From NCBI RefSeq assembly GCF_013167455.1, contig NZ_CP038328.1: 64,000 bases of DNA; one strand, written 5' to 3'. Shown here piece by piece: positions 55,520 through 62,845 of the stretch. The number at the start of each line of letters is the position of its first letter. Positions within the stretch are counted from its first letter, which is position 1. The notes beneath the pieces were generated by a model. That model made no database searches. It was given only the letters and a program-made list of their open reading frames with translations, and had not been told where the DNA came from. The DNA is from Escherichia coli O157:H7. Lineage in GTDB: Bacteria; Pseudomonadota; Gammaproteobacteria; Enterobacterales; Enterobacteriaceae. The position numbers were made by a program, and so were the translations under genes.

Positions 55520-56272
55520 TCATCTCGTCACTTTCCTCAATTGTGTCTCAGCATACGCTTCTTCCTGCCAGCACTTTGTAACCAGTTTATCAATGACATC
55601 TGCATATCCTTTGTACCACTGATAATCCGTCAGGTCTGGTACCAGCTTCTGGACATGAAGCCGCGCCAGTGTGGTTGGTAAACGGCTAAACCGGTTTCCA
55701 TTGCAACGCCCACAAACCTTATAAACAGGCGTGCCATGAAGCCTGGTTCTTTTTTCATCCAGGACAATACCTTTACCCTTACACCCTCTGCACGCTGTGC
55801 TGACTTCTCCCTTACCATGACAATGCTGACACAGTTCCTTCACCCACTCTTCCTTGATAACAGATTCCCCGCTTCTGGAGTGTTTCACCACCTCGCGCAA
55901 TACATCATGAAATCCAGTACCAGCACAATGCTCACAGCGAGCCTTACTTGCCGCAGACCTGGAATAATCAGCAAAGGCAAAATTCACAAGGTAAGGAATG
56001 ATCTGTAGCCGGGTTTCTTCACTCAATTTGTTCAATGTCGGGTTATCCAGTGCCATCGCGTAATTGAGCAGACCTTCAATCGCAAACTGAGGATCCTGAA
56101 CACCAACTTTTGCCAGGAATAAGGCAAACCCAAGCGGTGCTTTCGACTGCACCATCCCCTGCGCAGCCATTACATCCGTAATTGTTAAACCACCAGAGCC
56201 TGTCGCCGGTGCGTCATCGCTCAATTTTGGAGATTTTGGGGAGTAATATTTCGGTAAGGCTTCAAAGTTCAT
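55520..56272 (-). CDS. Q: Late antiterminator Q
   Basis: 250 aa; Cys-rich zinc-binding region (CEHCAGTG…CQHCHGKG…CRGCKGKG…CGRCNG); position before tR' and lysis genes. Confidence 0.75.
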   Translation of the reverse strand: MNFEALPKYYSPKSPKLSDDAPATGSGGLTITDVMAAQGMVQSKAPLGFALFLAKVGVQDPQFAIEGLLNYAMALDNPTLNKLSEETRLQIIPYLVNFAFADYSRSAASKARCEHCAGTGFHDVLREVVKHSRSGESVIKEEWVKELCQHCHGKGEVSTACRGCKGKGIVLDEKRTRLHGTPVYKVCGRCNGNRFSRLPTTLARLHVQKLVPDLTDYQWYKGYADVIDKLVTKCWQEEAYAETQLRKVTR

Positions 56273-56285
56273 GCTCGTTCTCCAC

Positions 56286-57281
56286 TTACGCCAGTACGCC
56301 TATTGCCAGCGCACGATCGATAAAACGAAATATCAGCTCCAGCTGGGAGCCATACTTCTCTTCAAATGCCACGGTATCCGCATGCAGCTCGTCGTGATGC
56401 TTTCTGCACAAAGGCAACACAAAGAGGTCATGCGCTTTTGTACCCATTCCTCCCTGACCGTGACCTATCAGGTGGTGGGGATCATCAGCAGGCTTTCCAC
56501 AACATGCACACGGCTGTGTCTTAACCCAGCGCGTGTACTTTTCATTAACCCAGCGGCGACGTTTTGGGCGTAACATAAAAGACTCCGGCGACTCAGGATC
56601 CACTTTCAGCGCCAGCACCTTTTTCGCTTTATCCTGGATGATGCTGGTGGCAGGAACCGAAGGCACAAGGTCACTTTCCCGGGTAACAGACGGCACAACA
56701 GGCTTCGGTAATCTAAGTGCCTTACGGGCTGCACTTTCCGGTAAGGCATCCGCCAGGTCATTACGAATCAGCCACCAGCACAGTTCCGGCATTGTCACAA
56801 CGTGACTGTCATCAAAACCGAGATCCCGACGCACAACAGACAACACCCAGCGGGCACAGTTATCCGTTGCCATTGATTCCAGCCGTTCCGTGAACTGATC
56901 GCGCAGCTGGTTATCGCAGTGCCAGCACAGACGGATTGCGCCCGGAGCGTGTCGCATTGTGGTCATGTTCTCGCTGTGCCAGTCGGAATGAGGCCACTGG
57001 CAGCCTTTTTCACGAAGTAACCAGCTTTCAAGACATTCCACGCCACCAGCACGACGGATCACTGCCTCATTGCGGAACACGGCCCGAACGGCAGGATCAT
57101 CCGCCAGCGGTTGTGATGCCGCCGGAACGGCACCACTGGCGAAAGATGAATAACGTTCCGGCTCAGGCTCCAGCAGGACACGCCCCTGCATAAACAGGGG
57201 CATCAGCTCTGAACCTGGCCTGAACAATACGATCCCCATACGCGGGGCAATTTCAGGAGTCAGTAGTGCTCTCACGGTCAC
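56286..57281 (-). CDS. DUF968-family phage protein (YdfU-like)
   Basis: 331 aa; C-terminal Cys/His cluster (CACCGKPADDPHHL…CRKHH); lambdoid Nin-region position. Confidence 0.55.
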   Translation of the reverse strand: MTVRALLTPEIAPRMGIVLFRPGSELMPLFMQGRVLLEPEPERYSSFASGAVPAASQPLADDPAVRAVFRNEAVIRRAGGVECLESWLLREKGCQWPHSDWHSENMTTMRHAPGAIRLCWHCDNQLRDQFTERLESMATDNCARWVLSVVRRDLGFDDSHVVTMPELCWWLIRNDLADALPESAARKALRLPKPVVPSVTRESDLVPSVPATSIIQDKAKKVLALKVDPESPESFMLRPKRRRWVNEKYTRWVKTQPCACCGKPADDPHHLIGHGQGGMGTKAHDLFVLPLCRKHHDELHADTVAFEEKYGSQLELIFRFIDRALAIGVLA

Positions 57282-57282
57282 C

Positions 57283-58092
57283 TCAATGAACGGTATCGAG
57301 CAGCTTTAACAGCTCAGGGAATCGGGATTCGAAGAAATGCGGCTGCGTCTCGCGCGGATTTGCGGGACTGGTGATGTTCTTGCCGAACATGCAGCCTTTC
57401 GCTGTCAGCGACCAGAATTTTTTGATGTTGTTAATCGCAGTGCGGCTGTATCGTTCACGTTGTTCAACGATCCCCAGCTTCGCCATCTGGTGATATGCCT
57501 GATTAGCTGTCAGGCGGATACCATACTGCTTCAGCAGTGCACTCAATGATAGCGTGGGGCGGCTTGAGCCATCAGGCGCGTCAGCAGGAGCATCAATGGC
57601 ATAGCGCGGTGCCAGATTCGGTAAGCCAACAGCCTCCTGGAGTTTCTGACAGGCACCAAGCACTGAAGAGTTAGACAGGTTTAACTCCCGGCGCATAAAG
57701 TCCAGCAGGATCACGCCAGCCTGCATCTTGTCAGCAGCCTGTCCGGATAATTTTTCCGGTGCGCTGGTTACCATATCGAAAGTACGGATCACCTTCAGAT
57801 GGAATGACGGGCTGATCCACATTGCATAGGCATACACCAGTTCCTTGCAGACATACGTTCCCCGTTCATTTCCCCCATGAATCACACTCACCGGGTCAAC
57901 ACCCAAATTCTGGGTGTTGGTCAATTCATGAACAAGCTCAACAGTTTGTTGGCTGGAAAGAAACTTTCCCGGCTCCTTGGTTCTGGCATTTGCACCAGAT
58001 GCTACTGCTGCGCGATGCAGATCGTTCAGGCTGTAACGCCCATAAGCATCACGACGAACTTCAATACCATCAATGACCATCAGATTATTCAT
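57283..58092 (-). CDS. KilA-N domain protein
   Basis: N-terminus MVIDGIEVRRDAYGRYSLNDLHRAAV typical of KilA-N/APSES. Confidence 0.6.
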   Translation of the reverse strand: MNNLMVIDGIEVRRDAYGRYSLNDLHRAAVASGANARTKEPGKFLSSQQTVELVHELTNTQNLGVDPVSVIHGGNERGTYVCKELVYAYAMWISPSFHLKVIRTFDMVTSAPEKLSGQAADKMQAGVILLDFMRRELNLSNSSVLGACQKLQEAVGLPNLAPRYAIDAPADAPDGSSRPTLSLSALLKQYGIRLTANQAYHQMAKLGIVEQRERYSRTAINNIKKFWSLTAKGCMFGKNITSPANPRETQPHFFESRFPELLKLLDTVH

Positions 58093-58111
58093 ACTTCGTT
58101 TCTCCTCTTAA

Positions 58112-58501
58112 TCAGGCGGCTGCACCCGCCGTTTTCTCGTACTTACTGATAGTGATCTCGACCTTCCCTTCCGGGATAACCGGTCCCCACTCCACCAGCA
58201 TTCTTTTCACCTGACTGTCGTCTTCCCACACACCCGCGTGGGTCAGGGCGTCAAACAGCGCCTTGTTATAGTTGTCCAGATCGCGGATCCGGTTATCCGG
58301 AGGAAACAACACGATCTCCACTGAAGCAGGTGCCGACGTTGGTTTCGGCAGACGACGTAACTGCTCAACTATTGCTGCGCACGCCGCGCTCTGGAATTTT
58401 CGCCCCGCCGCGCTTATCAGGCTCTTACCAGCAAACGCCCCTTTGTTGGGGTGTCGCCAGTACGTGTTCACGCTGGGCGGAAAAGGCAGGATCAGCTTCA
58501 T
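58112..58501 (-). CDS. rusA: RusA-like Holliday junction resolvase
   Basis: MKLILPFPPSVNTYW… characteristic RusA N-terminus; 129 aa. Confidence 0.8.
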   Translation of the reverse strand: MKLILPFPPSVNTYWRHPNKGAFAGKSLISAAGRKFQSAACAAIVEQLRRLPKPTSAPASVEIVLFPPDNRIRDLDNYNKALFDALTHAGVWEDDSQVKRMLVEWGPVIPEGKVEITISKYEKTAGAAA

Positions 58502-58824
58502 ACTTTCAGGTCCCTCTCATGTAACCAGTGGGTTGCACGCAGCCTTGCGTTTTCCTCACCGGCAAGCAGTGCGCGGATAATCCCGACCGCCTCGCTGTCG
58601 TCGTCCTTCACCGCGGTATGAAGCGTTATCCCCCGGGCCACGCCACGCTTTATCGTGATGACGCCTTTTTTCTCCAGTGCGCGAAGATGCTCCACCGCTG
58701 CATTCACTGAACGGTATCCCAGCATGGTTGCCACCTCCTGATTGGTTGGCGGGAAGCCACGTTCTTTCTGATAAGAAATCAGCATATCCAGCACCTGCTG
58801 CTGGCATTGAGTTAACGTCGTCAT
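58498..58824 (-). CDS. LexA-N-terminal-like winged-helix DNA-binding protein
   Basis: LTQCQQQVLDMLISYQKERGFPPTNQEVATMLGYRSVNAAVEHLRALEKKGVI resembles the LexA DNA-binding domain; no peptidase domain. Confidence 0.5.
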   Translation of the reverse strand: MTTLTQCQQQVLDMLISYQKERGFPPTNQEVATMLGYRSVNAAVEHLRALEKKGVITIKRGVARGITLHTAVKDDDSEAVGIIRALLAGEENARLRATHWLHERDLKV

Positions 58825-59474
58825 GCCGCCATCTCCCTGACCAGTTTTTCTGCCTGCTGGCGAACCTGCGCCAGAAAGGCCTCACCACATGCCTCAAGTT
58901 CATAGCGCCCGATGTAGCTGATTGCCGGTCCCTTCCAGGTCTTGTCGAAAACAGCAATAGCACCAGCGAAGAAAGCGCCTGTCGGCACCTGCTTCTCATC
59001 CTTCGGGATAAACCAGGCAGGCAGTTCAAAACCAATACGCCCGCGAATAAAAGCAATATGATCTGCATCTTCCGGCCACCACACTTCGCTGGTGGCAGCT
59101 TTGATCAGGAAAACATAGCGCCCGCCTTTATCACGCATGGCACTGGCATGCTTCATGATGTAACGCATGCCGGTGATGTATTGCCCCTCATGCTGACTGG
59201 CGCGGCTGTATGGGGGATTACCAAAGGCAGCACCTTTAAGCTCCGCAAGACGTTCTGACCAGTCATGCGCCAGCGCGTTGTCTTCCGCAGTGTAATAAGC
59301 GGCACATTTGGCGTTATCACCGTCAGTGAACAGATCCAGAACAAACGGGCCAAACAGGGTGTTAATTCCCCAGAAAATGTTGTCCGGCGTGCGCCACTGA
59401 TCGCCCACTTCCTTCAGTTCATGGGCTGGTTTGTTCCGCAGCTCCACCAGCGCCTGGCAATATTTATTACTCAT
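58821..59474 (-). CDS. Phage N6-adenine DNA methyltransferase (Dam-like)
   Basis: NPPY catalytic motif (AAFGNPPYSRA); ORF open to 59507, ATG at 59474 preferred. Confidence 0.7.
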   Translation of the reverse strand: MSNKYCQALVELRNKPAHELKEVGDQWRTPDNIFWGINTLFGPFVLDLFTDGDNAKCAAYYTAEDNALAHDWSERLAELKGAAFGNPPYSRASQHEGQYITGMRYIMKHASAMRDKGGRYVFLIKAATSEVWWPEDADHIAFIRGRIGFELPAWFIPKDEKQVPTGAFFAGAIAVFDKTWKGPAISYIGRYELEACGEAFLAQVRQQAEKLVREMAA

Positions 59475-59968
59475 TAAGCCCCCACGTAATTCCCTGACAG
59501 ATACCACTCTTCACCCGATACAGCGCGCTTGCTGCTTTTCCGTAAGCACCGCTCACGACGCGCCAGAAAATTGTTTCGTTCTGGCTGGGAGTGGCTTTCA
59601 CGGAATGCCGCCATCCACACCGTTGCAGCACGACGGTATAAGCCCCTGGACTCCAGTTCTTCAGCCTGGCGGGTCAGGCACAAAATCACCCGGGGATCGT
59701 TAGTGCCGACATAGAAATTGCGCACAGGTCTGGTTTCACGAACTGGTTGTGGTTCCGGCTCCTGCGCTCTCTCAGTCAGGCGCGGGAAATGTCTGCGTGT
59801 ATCCCCTTCACAACGGTGAGCCACACGCCCACTCTGACGTAACTTGCTTGCAGACTGCAGAACGCGCTGCCGTGAGTAACCTGCAAAAGCATCCGCAATG
59901 TCTCCGGAAGTACAGCCCGGATGGGCTTCAATGAATTTCTGAACGTCATTCAAAAGACTCATGCTCAC
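59474..59968 (-). CDS. Hypothetical phage protein
   Basis: 164 aa, basic, between replication and methylase genes. Confidence 0.35.
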   Translation of the reverse strand: MSMSLLNDVQKFIEAHPGCTSGDIADAFAGYSRQRVLQSASKLRQSGRVAHRCEGDTRRHFPRLTERAQEPEPQPVRETRPVRNFYVGTNDPRVILCLTRQAEELESRGLYRRAATVWMAAFRESHSQPERNNFLARRERCLRKSSKRAVSGEEWYLSGNYVGA

Positions 59969-60906
59969 CCCCTGAATCCTGCCGGGATCTGGCTGTAGTC
60001 CACGTTGTCGTAACTGGCTTTGAAGTACGGGTCCTCGCGTTTTTCGGTGTACGTGCTGACGGACGGCGATAAGCGCAGGGAAAGCTCATCCCATTTTTCC
60101 CGCAGCTTCGACGGGCTGAGCACGTTACGGCACCAGAACGGATCGCGACTGACGCGGCTGTACATCTCGCAGATTTGTTTATGAGTACGACCATCCTGCA
60201 CACACATCAGGCGAATTTCGTTTGCCCAGGCTGTCCAGTTCGGTTCTTTGGGACGAACCACCTCGCCGTCACATTCGGCGGCATGCTCGTACAGGGCGAT
60301 GATTTTTTTCCAGAGCCACTGTGCACAGGTCAAATCATCCTGCGTCCCCCACTGGCGCTTTTTAGGGCTGAATACAACCGCATCAGGATGGCGAGTTAAA
60401 AAATCCTGTTCATCCGTCTGCGTGTCCGGTTGCGAAGCGTCCGGACGAGAAGGTTTTTTATCTGACGGATCATGTTTTGATTTTACTGACGGATCCCCGC
60501 CAGATTCTGACGGGTGAAAACCCGCTTTTTTGCCAGATTTCGACGCATCAAATTTTGACGGGTCAGATTTTGATGCGTCAGATTTTGACGGGTCAGAATC
60601 TGACAGTTGAGAAAATGCCGCTGCCTGAAGCTTCGCAACGTTAAGCTGATAAACATTCGACGCATTGCGGTTACCCTGGCGACGCGCCTTACGCGTTAAC
60701 CAGCCTTCTGCTTCCAGCCGTGCGATAGCCGTTCTGACGGTGCTCATCCCCGCGCCAATCTGGCGGGCAATGGTTTCAATTGATGGCCAGCACACACCTT
60801 CGTCATTACTGAAATCAGCCAGGCGGGCCATAATTGCCACGCTGGATAACTTCATGCCTGACGCAGCGCAACCATCCCATACATAGCCGGTTAATTTAGT
60901 GCTCAT
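59965..60906 (-). CDS. Replication initiation protein (lambda O-like, iterons embedded)
   Basis: N-terminal winged-helix region, internal repetitive SKSD/ASKS linker encoded by DNA iterons, C-terminal domain. Confidence 0.6.
   Translation of the reverse strand: MSTKLTGYVWDGCAASGMKLSSVAIMARLADFSNDEGVCWPSIETIARQIGAGMSTVRTAIARLEAEGWLTRKARRQGNRNASNVYQLNVAKLQAAAFSQLSDSDPSKSDASKSDPSKFDASKSGKKAGFHPSESGGDPSVKSKHDPSDKKPSRPDASQPDTQTDEQDFLTRHPDAVVFSPKKRQWGTQDDLTCAQWLWKKIIALYEHAAECDGEVVRPKEPNWTAWANEIRLMCVQDGRTHKQICEMYSRVSRDPFWCRNVLSPSKLREKWDELSLRLSPSVSTYTEKREDPYFKASYDNVDYSQIPAGFRG
60450..60610 (+). repeat. Iteron array (putative phage replication origin) inside the replication gene
   Basis: About eight tandem copies of TGACGG(A/G)TCA-like units (e.g. 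GATTTTGACGGGTCAGATTTTGATGCGTCAGATTTTGACGGGTCAGAATCTGACAG). Confidence 0.55.
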
Positions 60907-60915
60907 GACCGACCT

Positions 60916-61254
60916 CTATTTCCCTGAATTTACGACGAAACTGTTCGAGCGGGCTGAAGCACTCATGCTCATAGCCTTCGCGGAGGTAGATAACCCGTTG
61001 TGTTTCCGGTTCCCAACGAATGACTCTGACGGGCACTCCGTAGTGATCTTTGAACCAGCGGTTAACTTGTCGCAAAGGACTGTCTCCTTTTGCCTGTTGA
61101 AATCACCCACAGCCCACTCTGCAAAGCTGTGGGTTACAATTTCCCTGTCACCTGGTACATTCACTGCATAGCAATACTCCACCTTCGCTTTTCCACCCGG
61201 TACAGGAAGTGCAATCAGTTGCGAGCGACGGTAGTGTGTTGTTAAACTGTTCAT
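60916..61254 (-). CDS. Hypothetical phage early protein
   Basis: 112-aa ORF between cII-position gene and replication gene; no motif. Confidence 0.3.
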
Positions 61255-61802
61255 GCGTTAGTTTCTCCACAGTCACGACACGCCACGGCGCCCGGAGCTG
61301 CACACTCGCGGGCGTCATTACTTTCTGAAATGCAAAAAATTTTGTAGACCAGTGCTGCATGCTCCTGCAGCTTCGAAATTGAGAGGTACAGCTCGTCGTT
61401 AATTGCTGTCTTCTCATGCGGTTCCACTACACCGTCTTCAATTGCTGAACGAATCTGTTTTGAATAACTGCCGATCTGTTCAATGACCTCCAGCAGGCGT
61501 TGGTTGATATCGGCGTTGTCCACATCCTCGACATCAGGAAGAGACACAAAGACGCCATTTGCAGACTGCGCCACAGCGTCAGCAATGAAGTGAGTTCCAC
61601 CAGCACGTTGCAAAATCATTGCCCATCCCAGCGGGAAAATCTGATCGCCATCGGCACGAAGGCGGTTAAATAATGCGTTCTCTGTTACATCCAGCCAGTC
61701 AGCAGCTTCAGCGTACCCCCCCGGCAACGCTGCGATAGTTTTTCTGACAGCTTTCACGTACCACTCAGGCTGTTTTTCTACTTTCCAGTGATGCTTACCC
61801 AC
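61251..61802 (-). CDS. Phage early regulatory protein (cII-position; YdaT/CII-like?)
   Basis: 183 aa directly downstream of cro-like gene with start/stop overlap. Confidence 0.35.
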
Positions 61803-62055
61803 GGTTCACCTCCTGTTCCTGTGGTTTAAACCCATTCTGGTTTTGGCTAGATTGAAAACGTGCCGGATAAAGAATCTGCATTTCGCTGACTTCACCCTTA
61901 AAAAAATTGGCTAAACGTTCTGCAAGCTCGATAGATGGAATCTGCTCCAGCCTCTCAATACGACTCAACGTCGCTGGATTGACTTGAACACCCGCAGCAA
62001 CATGCTGCAAAGTGAAACCATGCGCCTTACGCACATTTCGTAATGGTGATTGCAT
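61795..62055 (-). CDS. cro: Cro-like HTH regulator
   Basis: HTH (HGFTLQHVAAGVQVNPATLSRIERLEQIPSIELAERLANFF); divergent from cI across an operator-rich spacer. Confidence 0.6.
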   Translation of the reverse strand: MQSPLRNVRKAHGFTLQHVAAGVQVNPATLSRIERLEQIPSIELAERLANFFKGEVSEMQILYPARFQSSQNQNGFKPQEQEVNRG

Positions 62056-62152: not shown

Positions 62153-62845
62153 ATGAACATAGGAAACCGAGTCAGACAACTTCGCCAAGCGAAGAACATG
62201 AAAATCGCCGATCTCGCTGAAGCGATAGGAGTAGATGCGGCGAACATCTCGCGCTTAGAAACGGGTAAGCAAAAACAATTTACCGAACAAACACTGAGTA
62301 ATATTGCCAAGAGCTTAGGTGTTGATATTGCTGATCTCTTTACCTCTGCCCACAAAAGTAATACTGTATATAAAAACAGTAATAATGAGGATGTTGCGCA
62401 GGTGAAGGATGTGTTCCGTATTGAAATGCTGGATATCAGTGCCAGTGCGGGAAATGGCCTTATCCAGGGCGGTGATGTCATTGATGTGATTCATGCCATC
62501 GAATACAGAACTGATAATGCTGTATCAATGTTCGGCGGACGACCAGCCAATCACATCAAAGTTATCAACGTTCGTGGGGACAGTATGTGTCCAACCATTG
62601 AGCCAGGAGATCTCATCTTCGTTGATGTCAGCATCAATCAGTTTGATGGTGATGGTATATATGTCTTTGGTTTTGATGACAAAATATACGTTAAAAGACT
62701 TCAAATGATTCCTGACAAACTGCTGGTGATTTCTGATAACCAGATTTACCGTGAATGGGGAATTACTAGCGAAAACGAACACCGATTCATGGTCTTTGGA
62801 AAGGTCTTAATCAGTCAGTCGCAAACCCTTAAGAGACATAATTAA
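62153..62845 (+). CDS. cI: CI-like prophage repressor (HTH + S24 LexA-like peptidase domain)
   Basis: N-terminal HTH (VRQLRQAKNMKIADLAEAIGVDAANISRLETGKQ); C-terminal S24 motifs (VRGDSMCPTIEPGDLIFVD … VKRL). Confidence 0.85.
   Translation: MNIGNRVRQLRQAKNMKIADLAEAIGVDAANISRLETGKQKQFTEQTLSNIAKSLGVDIADLFTSAHKSNTVYKNSNNEDVAQVKDVFRIEMLDISASAGNGLIQGGDVIDVIHAIEYRTDNAVSMFGGRPANHIKVINVRGDSMCPTIEPGDLIFVDVSINQFDGDGIYVFGFDDKIYVKRLQMIPDKLLVISDNQIYREWGITSENEHRFMVFGKVLISQSQTLKRHN

Follow-up and report, generated by a model that had tools for sequence, protein, structure and literature searches.

Lambda, phi80 and P22 are textbook examples of phages whose replication origins consist of repeats lying inside an O-type initiator gene, and an in-gene repeat origin is in itself an ordinary, already known kind of feature. 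In the stretch of Escherichia coli O157:H7 DNA analyzed here (64,000 nt of contig NZ_CP038328.1, RefSeq assembly GCF_013167455.1; hereafter the window), a lambdoid prophage extends from about 46 kb to beyond 63 kb, and one of its genes, which encodes a protein of 313 amino acids (aa), contains an array of short DNA repeats at 60463-60610. Does this array serve as the replication origin of the prophage, or is it only the coding sequence of a repetitive peptide? We conclude that the repeats are likely to be the cognate iterons of the initiator that this gene encodes and, together with an adjoining AT-rich stretch, to form the prophage replication origin. Such an origin would be of the lambda type, belonging to an SfII-type lambdoid prophage but assembled from parts different from those of lambda. 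The replication region is 98-99% identical at the nucleotide level to that of the Shigella phages SfII and SfIV. The origin of this very common SfII/SfIV-type replicon has apparently not been described, and a literature search for the repeat sequence, the SfII/SfIV origin and the C-terminal tail motif discussed below returned nothing specific.

The initiator gene and its repeat array

The 313-aa protein matched PHROG 391 ('replication initiation O-like') with an E value of 4e-135, its N-terminus matched the Pfam winged-helix family HTH_36 (E 4e-11), and BLASTP aligned its residues 70-277 with residues 78-270 of lambda O (E 6e-26). These matches identify it as a replication initiator, as the original prediction had supposed. 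In the Pfam search the protein matched HTH_36 instead of Phage_rep_O (PF04492), the family that lambda O matched in a control search (E 6e-36). AlphaFold2, run on a 60-sequence alignment, predicted aa 1-98 and aa 166-280 with confidence and the array-encoded residues 103-163 as disordered, judging by the predicted local distance difference test (pLDDT) score. By tblastn, the C-terminal domain was 39% identical to O of lambda, 21 and 933W and 35% identical to phi80 gene 15, and it is homologous to the C-terminal domains of lambda O and phi80 gp15. When solved structures were searched by sequence, no homologue of the initiator was found except for weak MarR matches; the winged-helix domain is reminiscent of GntR-, MarR- and CRP-type transcription regulators. 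The gene and its parts are as follows.

59965-60906, minus strand: O-like initiator gene, 313 aa (open reading frame; PHROG 391; HTH_36; lambda O alignment)
60613-60906, minus strand: region coding for the N-terminal winged-helix DNA-binding domain, aa 1-98
60412-60612, minus strand: predicted disordered linker, aa 99-165, carrying the whole array (AlphaFold2 pLDDT <50 for residues 103-163)
60067-60411, minus strand: C-terminal helical domain, aa 166-280 (tblastn, BLASTP, AlphaFold2 pLDDT 86-97)

Between the N- and C-terminal domains, at gene offsets 297-444, lie eight 10-nt dyad units of the form TGAC-NN-GTCA, with the conserved core TGA-N4-TCA.

60463-60472: unit 1, the last unit, carrying the second GATC; plus strand TGACGGATCA, coding strand TGATCCGTCA
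60487-60496: unit 2; plus strand TGACGGATCC
60508-60517: unit 3, isolated, 33 nt from the block; plus strand TGACGGGTGA, coding strand TCACCCGTCA, peptide FHPSE
60541-60550: unit 4; plus strand CGACGCATCA
60556-60565: unit 5; plus strand TGACGGGTCA
60571-60580: unit 6; plus strand TGATGCGTCA
60586-60595: unit 7; plus strand TGACGGGTCA
60601-60610: unit 8, degenerate and outermost; plus strand TGACAGTTGA
60541-60610: proximal block, in which five dyad units recur strictly every 15 nt and whose copy number differs between alleles

The start-to-start distances from unit 1 to unit 8 are 24, 21, 33, 15, 15, 15 and 15 nt; every spacing is a multiple of 3, and a single reading frame is common to all units. 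The original prediction spoke of about eight tandem TGACGG(A/G)TCA-like units. The number proved correct, while the tandem arrangement applies only to the five units at the 15-nt period, the other three being dispersed (33, 21 and 24 nt). A repeat finder, the check proposed at the time, detected the array: Tandem Repeats Finder reported period 15 (4.3 copies) and period 30 at 60534-60597. Seven plus-strand matches to the unit with at most two mismatches fell inside 133 nt. Counting both strands, the whole window contained 120 such matches where shuffling predicted 88, and a Poisson estimate from that expectation (88 per 64 kb, both strands) gave about 1e-11 for seven clustered same-strand matches. 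The repeats are real and do not arise by chance.

The array-encoded peptide contains SDSDPSKSDASKSDPSKFDASKSGKKAGFHPSESGGDPSVKSKHDPSD and is of the SDPSK/SDASK type, and the view that the units lie in frame and encode a repetitive linker was borne out by the 313-aa open reading frame and by its predicted disorder. Arrays of clustered regularly interspaced short palindromic repeats (CRISPR) have identical 24-48-nt repeats, unique spacers of similar length and no coding function. As had been argued, the present array is not one of them: its units are 10 nt long, the gaps 5 nt, unique spacers are absent, and the whole lies in frame in a conserved coding sequence. Rfam returned for the region only a sub-threshold microRNA-hairpin match, attributable to the tandem palindromes; likewise, a single strand of the array folds well (z -4.7), as any palindrome array would, and we do not propose an RNA element. 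A promoter scan of the array revealed nothing notable. Antisense to the initiator and inside the array, the plus strand at 60511-60524 carries a small G+C hairpin followed by a T-run (CGGGTGAAAACCCG CTTTTTTGCC). Six terminator-like hairpin/T-run sites were counted in the region versus 2.6 expected, and this one may be due to chance.

Constraint on the repeats at the DNA level

We gathered the gene from 14-15 diverged lineages, comprising phages and prophages of E. coli, Shigella, Klebsiella, Citrobacter, Yersinia, Pantoea and Rahnella, in which the N-domain was 55-89% identical. The diverged DNA was obtained by tblastn on phage records and by looking up the encoding contigs. A search of viral contigs gave only ~100% identical alleles, which served for the analysis of copy-number variation and were uninformative for divergence. 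Between lineages, identical codons were used at only 29-58% of the identical N-domain residues, and none of the 29 invariant degenerate N-domain residues kept a single codon across 14 lineages, indicating that synonymous sites in this gene are saturated.

The linker peptide itself differs between lineages (SDPSK, SDTSK, FEGSK, VDPSN, SEPSK, SEHSE), while the DNA keeps T-GA-N4-TCA. Codon statistics were compiled for 55 units from 7 diverged lineages. The serine codon of the unit was TCA in 50 of 53 cases, versus 18 of 137 for the other serines of the same genes. The codon preceding the unit ended in T in 43/55, across twelve amino acids (S, F, I, H, T, P, R, Y and A among them), and the central codon was free (P, A, T, G, Q, L or C). 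The conservation counts, T43 G47 A55 at positions 1-3 and T53 C55 A52 at positions 8-10, are dyad-symmetric, a pattern of TGA/TCA half-sites that is predicted by a dimeric DNA-binding protein and by no peptide constraint. When the same peptides were synonymously recoded with the genes' own codon usage, the motif count observed had P ≤5e-5 in 6 of the 7 lineages. Given this conservation of synonymous positions, a repetitive peptide does not suffice to explain the array, which is an element of the DNA; the repeats appear to be selected as DNA, not only as peptide.

The arrangement of the units was retained as well. The diverged lineages share the pattern of n x 15 nt followed by 33, 21 and 24 nt; the 15-nt period was kept in 15 lineages, and the +33 spacing in lineages from Klebsiella, Citrobacter, Yersinia, Pantoea and E. 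coli. Among 80 near-identical alleles, the differences consisted of whole 15-nt units (giving proteins of 308, 313, 318 or 323 aa) or were found mostly in the central dinucleotide.

Association of the array with the DNA-binding domain

The N-domain and the array together behave as one module, which is fused to three unrelated C-terminal parts, of the lambda-O, Phg_2220_C and P27 types; the P27-type fusion is followed by DnaC and helicase genes. In the E. coli lineage P0094, the putative recognition helix is changed (STVIGLINELVRDGW) and the units read TGGACGTCCA / TGAACGTCCA, with the 15/33 spacing kept; this array (L096 2813-2920) encodes a quite different peptide (SGRPE, TERPE). Such co-variation of the units with the recognition helix, together with the joint transfer of N-domain and array and the different repeats of more distant HTH_36 initiators, lends indirect support to the idea that the N-terminal domain of the initiator binds its own units.

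Repeats were also present in other initiator types. At the same gene position, two distant HTH_36 initiators carry dyad repeats of their own, namely GGGCAGGAGCTGCCC, three times, in 'O' of the Stx phage Min27, and GGTCAAATTCCGACC in the Vibrio phage Va_PF430-3_p42. In YdaU of the K-12 Rac prophage, which has a DUF1376 N-domain, four AGATGTTCAA-like repeats lie at gene offset 353-444. The repeat loci of these types (Min27, Vibrio phage, YdaU) are L091 2227-2292, L093 2314-2367 and L103 2972-3063. Since relatives of the initiator are followed by lambda P, DnaC-like or helicase genes, the family is evidently tied to replication.

Of 5,426 complete E. coli genomes, 2,106 carry the segment comprising the N-domain and the array; it also occurs in the Shigella serotype-converting phages SfII and SfIV and in prophages of Klebsiella, Citrobacter, Yersinia, Pantoea and Rahnella. 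RefSeq/PGAP names the initiator only 'helix-turn-helix domain-containing protein', both in the window (60400-60906) and in the genomes carrying the segment, and phage records name it inconsistently ('replication protein O', 'primosomal protein', 'GntR family regulator').

Unstable DNA and GATC sites at the distal end of the array

A nearest-neighbour stability scan located a candidate DNA-unwinding element at the distal end of the array, where an invariant unit with a Dam site also lies.

60448-60487: candidate DNA-unwinding element, least stable 40-mer, 70% A+T
60484-60495: invariant 12-nt element GATCCGTCAGTA (coding strand), a unit with a Dam site

The 40-mer (gene offsets 420-459) ranked first, with z 2.8, within the 2.7 kb around the gene, and the equivalent position also ranked first in Klebsiella 1 LV-2017, phiNP and Flotzy. 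In the lambda control, the same scan placed the AT-rich element (O offset 437-476) joint first. The codons GAT CCG TCA GTA of the 12-nt element are identical in all 12 lineages that have DPSV, and the element is retained in P0094 despite the changed array units and recognition helix of that lineage. The second GATC, at 60466 in the unit at 60463-60472, lies 24 nt from the first, at 60490, and inside the least stable DNA, and a GATC pair 21-24 nt apart was present in 13 of 14 lineages. The array is bipartite, with a variable 15-nt-period block and invariant, GATC-bearing distal units. A gene for Dam or another adenine methylase is located beside or near the initiator gene in most of the relatives examined. 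It may be speculated that the distal units could make firing or opening of the origin sensitive to Dam.

A DnaT-like tail and the loading of the helicase

A Pfam search of the genes from cro to the terminase genes found no homologue of P, DnaC, DnaB or primase, and the gene directly 3′ of the initiator, the place of a P-type loader gene at a lambdoid origin, is not of that type. By this search, the early-right operon from cro to Q (55520-62055, minus strand) appears to be a single-gene replication module. The initiator itself ends in a peptide that resembles the end of the host protein DnaT.

59968-60009, minus strand: tail of the initiator, ...DNVDYSQIPAGFRG, which matches the last residues of E. 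coli DnaT, ...EPDSQIPPGFRG

The initiator ends in SQIPAGFRG and DnaT in SQIPPGFRG; some relatives end in EPDTEIPPGFRG, to be compared with EPDSQIPPGFRG of DnaT. A GFR-type ending was present in 58 of 60 full-length homologues, and K-12 Rac YdaU likewise ends in IPPGFRG. Some phage records call the initiator DnaT, an assignment that we rejected: PF17948, the DNA-binding domain of DnaT (primosomal protein I), gave no match even at E ≤1, and in an hhalign comparison with DnaT only the C-terminal 21 residues aligned.

The tail was distributed according to the neighbouring genes. In each of the three homologues examined that are devoid of a DnaT-like tail, a Phage_lambda_P gene comes next, whereas tail-bearing initiators are followed by a DnaC-like gene or by no loader gene (loci compared: L095 2979-3518; L102 3001-4701; L098, L100 and L101, gene from 2501). 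In some relatives the order of the initiator and the dnaC-like gene is that of the host dnaT-dnaC operon. From this distribution we infer that the tail recruits DnaC-DnaB, which suggests a portable DnaC/DnaB-recruiting peptide. How DnaT recruits DnaB/DnaC has been stated to be unknown (PMC13377028). The observation that a DnaT peptide ends initiators lacking P, and is absent where P follows, also bears on replication restart.

Comparison with known origins

The four 19-20-nt iterons of lambda lie in gene O and are followed by an AT-rich element (PMC7466680). In our lambda control they occupied O offsets 349-435, directly after the Phage_rep_O domain (aa 22-115). The comparison with lambdoid origins suggested earlier came out in favor of the prediction, with the array at offsets 297-444 in the same place as the lambda iterons and the AT-rich stretch on the same side. 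As in lambda, dyad repeats occupy the part of the initiator gene between the sequences for the DNA-binding and C-terminal domains and code for a flexible linker, so that every extra repeat lengthens the protein; an easily melted AT-rich stretch follows on the distal side (offsets 420-459 here, 437-476 in lambda). The gene is in the early-right operon after cII, and the C-terminal domain is homologous (31-39% identity). The shared order of binding domain, iterons, unstable DNA and C-terminal domain implies the same polarity as in lambda. Unlike lambda, the prophage has an initiator with an HTH_36 instead of a Phage_rep_O N-domain; its 10-nt units are spaced at 15 or 21-33 nt, versus four 19-mers at 20-24 nt; the repeat sequences share no similarity; and there is no P gene, a DnaT-like tail replacing the lambda O ending. 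The 'P27' of PMC7466680 was considered as a comparator for the phiP27 L17 homologue and was uninformative, as it has a lambda-type O and lambda iterons.

In gene 18 of phage L, an origin was inferred from six copies of an 11-bp unit, the unit differing with each binding specificity (PMC8022706). The present case is like gene 18 of P22 and phage L in that the origin is inferred from imprecise short repeats in an O-type gene, and unlike it in the initiator family, the repeat sequence and the partner, P22 and L encoding the DnaB-type helicase gp12. Rac is a lambdoid prophage with a reported active origin (PMC3945230). In Rac-like prophages of other strains, an HTH_36 homologue of the initiator, 59% identical to it, shares its units, ends in a DnaT-like tail and precedes a DnaC-like gene. 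By contrast, YdaU of K-12 Rac has the DUF1376 N-domain and different repeats, and the phage in the window has no ydaV-like gene. We did not find a sequence-level map position of oriJ in the literature. The likeness to DnaT consists of the extreme C-terminal peptide and, in some relatives, of the order of the initiator and dnaC-like genes.

Iterons of plasmids are direct repeats of 17-22 bp, bound by monomers, phased at ~22 bp and located outside the rep gene. With iteron plasmids of the RepA, pi and RepE type, the prophage shares a winged-helix initiator and multiple repeated sites beside an AT-rich region; the array differs in being made of 10-nt dyads with a 15-nt period inside the gene, and it is not of the plasmid type.

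As far as sequence analysis reaches, the reading of the array as a candidate prophage origin is thus supported. We refine it in that the units are 10-nt dyads (TGA-N4-TCA), the array is bipartite, the initiator falls outside the Phage_rep_O family, and the replicon has no P gene.

Proposed mechanism and alternative explanations

If the initiator works as lambda O does at ori-lambda, its N-terminal domain would bind the TGA-N4-TCA dyads as a dimer and build a nucleoprotein complex. As in lambda, the duplex would then open at about 60448-60487, aided by rightward transcription through the gene, and the host DnaB helicase would be loaded. Because the phage has no P, DnaC or helicase gene, loading would proceed through the DnaT-like C-terminal peptide SQIPAGFRG and the host DnaC-DnaB complex.

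Several points weigh against an origin of this kind. With 70% A+T, the putative unwinding element is modest compared with that of lambda (78%), and at offset -446 to -407, ~430 nt upstream of the gene, another 40-mer is just as unstable. The units differ from the lambda 19-mers in being 10 nt long at a 15-nt period, and for a winged-helix dimer a distance of 7 nt between half-sites is unusually short. Position 6 of the unit is conserved (C in 45/55) but not dyad-symmetric, which may reflect constraint on the peptide rather than on the DNA. As all units share one frame, part of the similarity within the array is due to duplication and slippage. The loading step is putative, since the phage lacks a gene for a helicase loader, and no experiments on binding, unwinding or origin firing for this replicon type were found in the searchable literature.

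The units might instead be sites at which the initiator acts in autoregulation, in copy control or as a transcription roadblock, with opening and loading taking place elsewhere, for example at the AT-rich stretch upstream of the gene. The unstable 40-mer present there and the similarity of the winged helix to GntR, MarR and CRP regulators fit this explanation. We nevertheless regard it as unlikely, given that the position of the distal unstable stretch is conserved across lineages and matches the lambda layout, and that the N-domain and the array are kept next to replication-type C-domains and loader genes. It is very unlikely that another protein, such as a host factor, SeqA/Dam, or a PerC-like or LexA-like phage regulator encoded downstream, binds the units or, failing that, the invariant GATCCGTCAGTA pair alone. 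This view could account for the invariance of the GATC-bearing distal units even in P0094, where the array units and the helix have changed, and for the Dam genes that accompany the initiator; however, the array units have the same TCA half-site and lie in the same frame as the distal ones, no independent evidence points to another binder, and the gene neighbourhood, Dam excepted, differs from lineage to lineage.

Another explanation, namely that the repeat is only a slippage-prone, low-complexity linker (SKSD/DPS) whose DNA similarity stems from recent duplication and concerted evolution, with no function as DNA, has been largely refuted by the synonymous-site data, and we consider it very improbable. 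It agrees with the spacings, which are all multiples of 3 in a single frame, with the change of copy number by whole units and with the predicted disorder of the encoded region. It does not agree with a peptide that diverges widely while the dyad core and the synonymous bases are kept, with the dyad-symmetric conservation of the TGA/TCA half-sites, or with the outcome of the recoding tests; moreover, the three dispersed units are non-tandem and yet the most conserved as DNA.

Returning to the array as the iterons and origin of the prophage, we tentatively put forward a more detailed picture as one possibility. In it, a P-independent lambdoid replicon would have a bipartite origin, in which the 15-nt-period dyad block co-evolves with the winged-helix domain and a universally invariant, Dam-methylatable GATCCGTCAG pair lies in the unwinding element, and host DnaC-DnaB would be recruited by a portable DnaT peptide, IPxGFRG. 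If this is true, IPxGFRG would be the long-sought element for the handover from DnaT to DnaB/DnaC, and phages would swap a DnaT-like tail and a lambda-O-type ending depending on whether they carry P. A defined origin would give a minimal replicon to test, a marker of prophage induction and a basis for replicon typing of lambdoid prophages.

Neighbouring genes of the early-right operon

The gene order leftward from cI is cro, a cII-like gene, small open reading frames, the 313-aa initiator, a PerC-like regulator and Dam, followed by genes for a LexA-like protein, RusA, a KilA-N protein, a DUF968 protein and Q, and then by the lysis and terminase genes. The initiator is thus a gene of the early-right operon, situated after cro and the cII-like gene.

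62153-62845, plus strand: cI (Pfam Peptidase_S24 with helix-turn-helix; SfII annotation)
61795-62055, minus strand: cro (Pfam HTH_3; SfII annotation)
61251-61802, minus strand: cII-like gene (Pfam Phage_CP76; SfII annotation)
58821-59507, minus strand: Dam methylase gene of the phage, one gene downstream of the initiator (Pfam Dam, E 5e-45)
60916-61254, minus strand: 112-aa open reading frame (PHROG 1170; its first 63 aa match a separate family, PHROG 20047)
60896-61075, minus strand: DUF4222 protein, 59 aa, TTG start (PHROG 1343)

The last two of these reading frames, directly upstream of the initiator gene (60896-61254, minus strand), overlap in different frames; either the stop of a short gene has been lost or one of the two gene calls is wrong.

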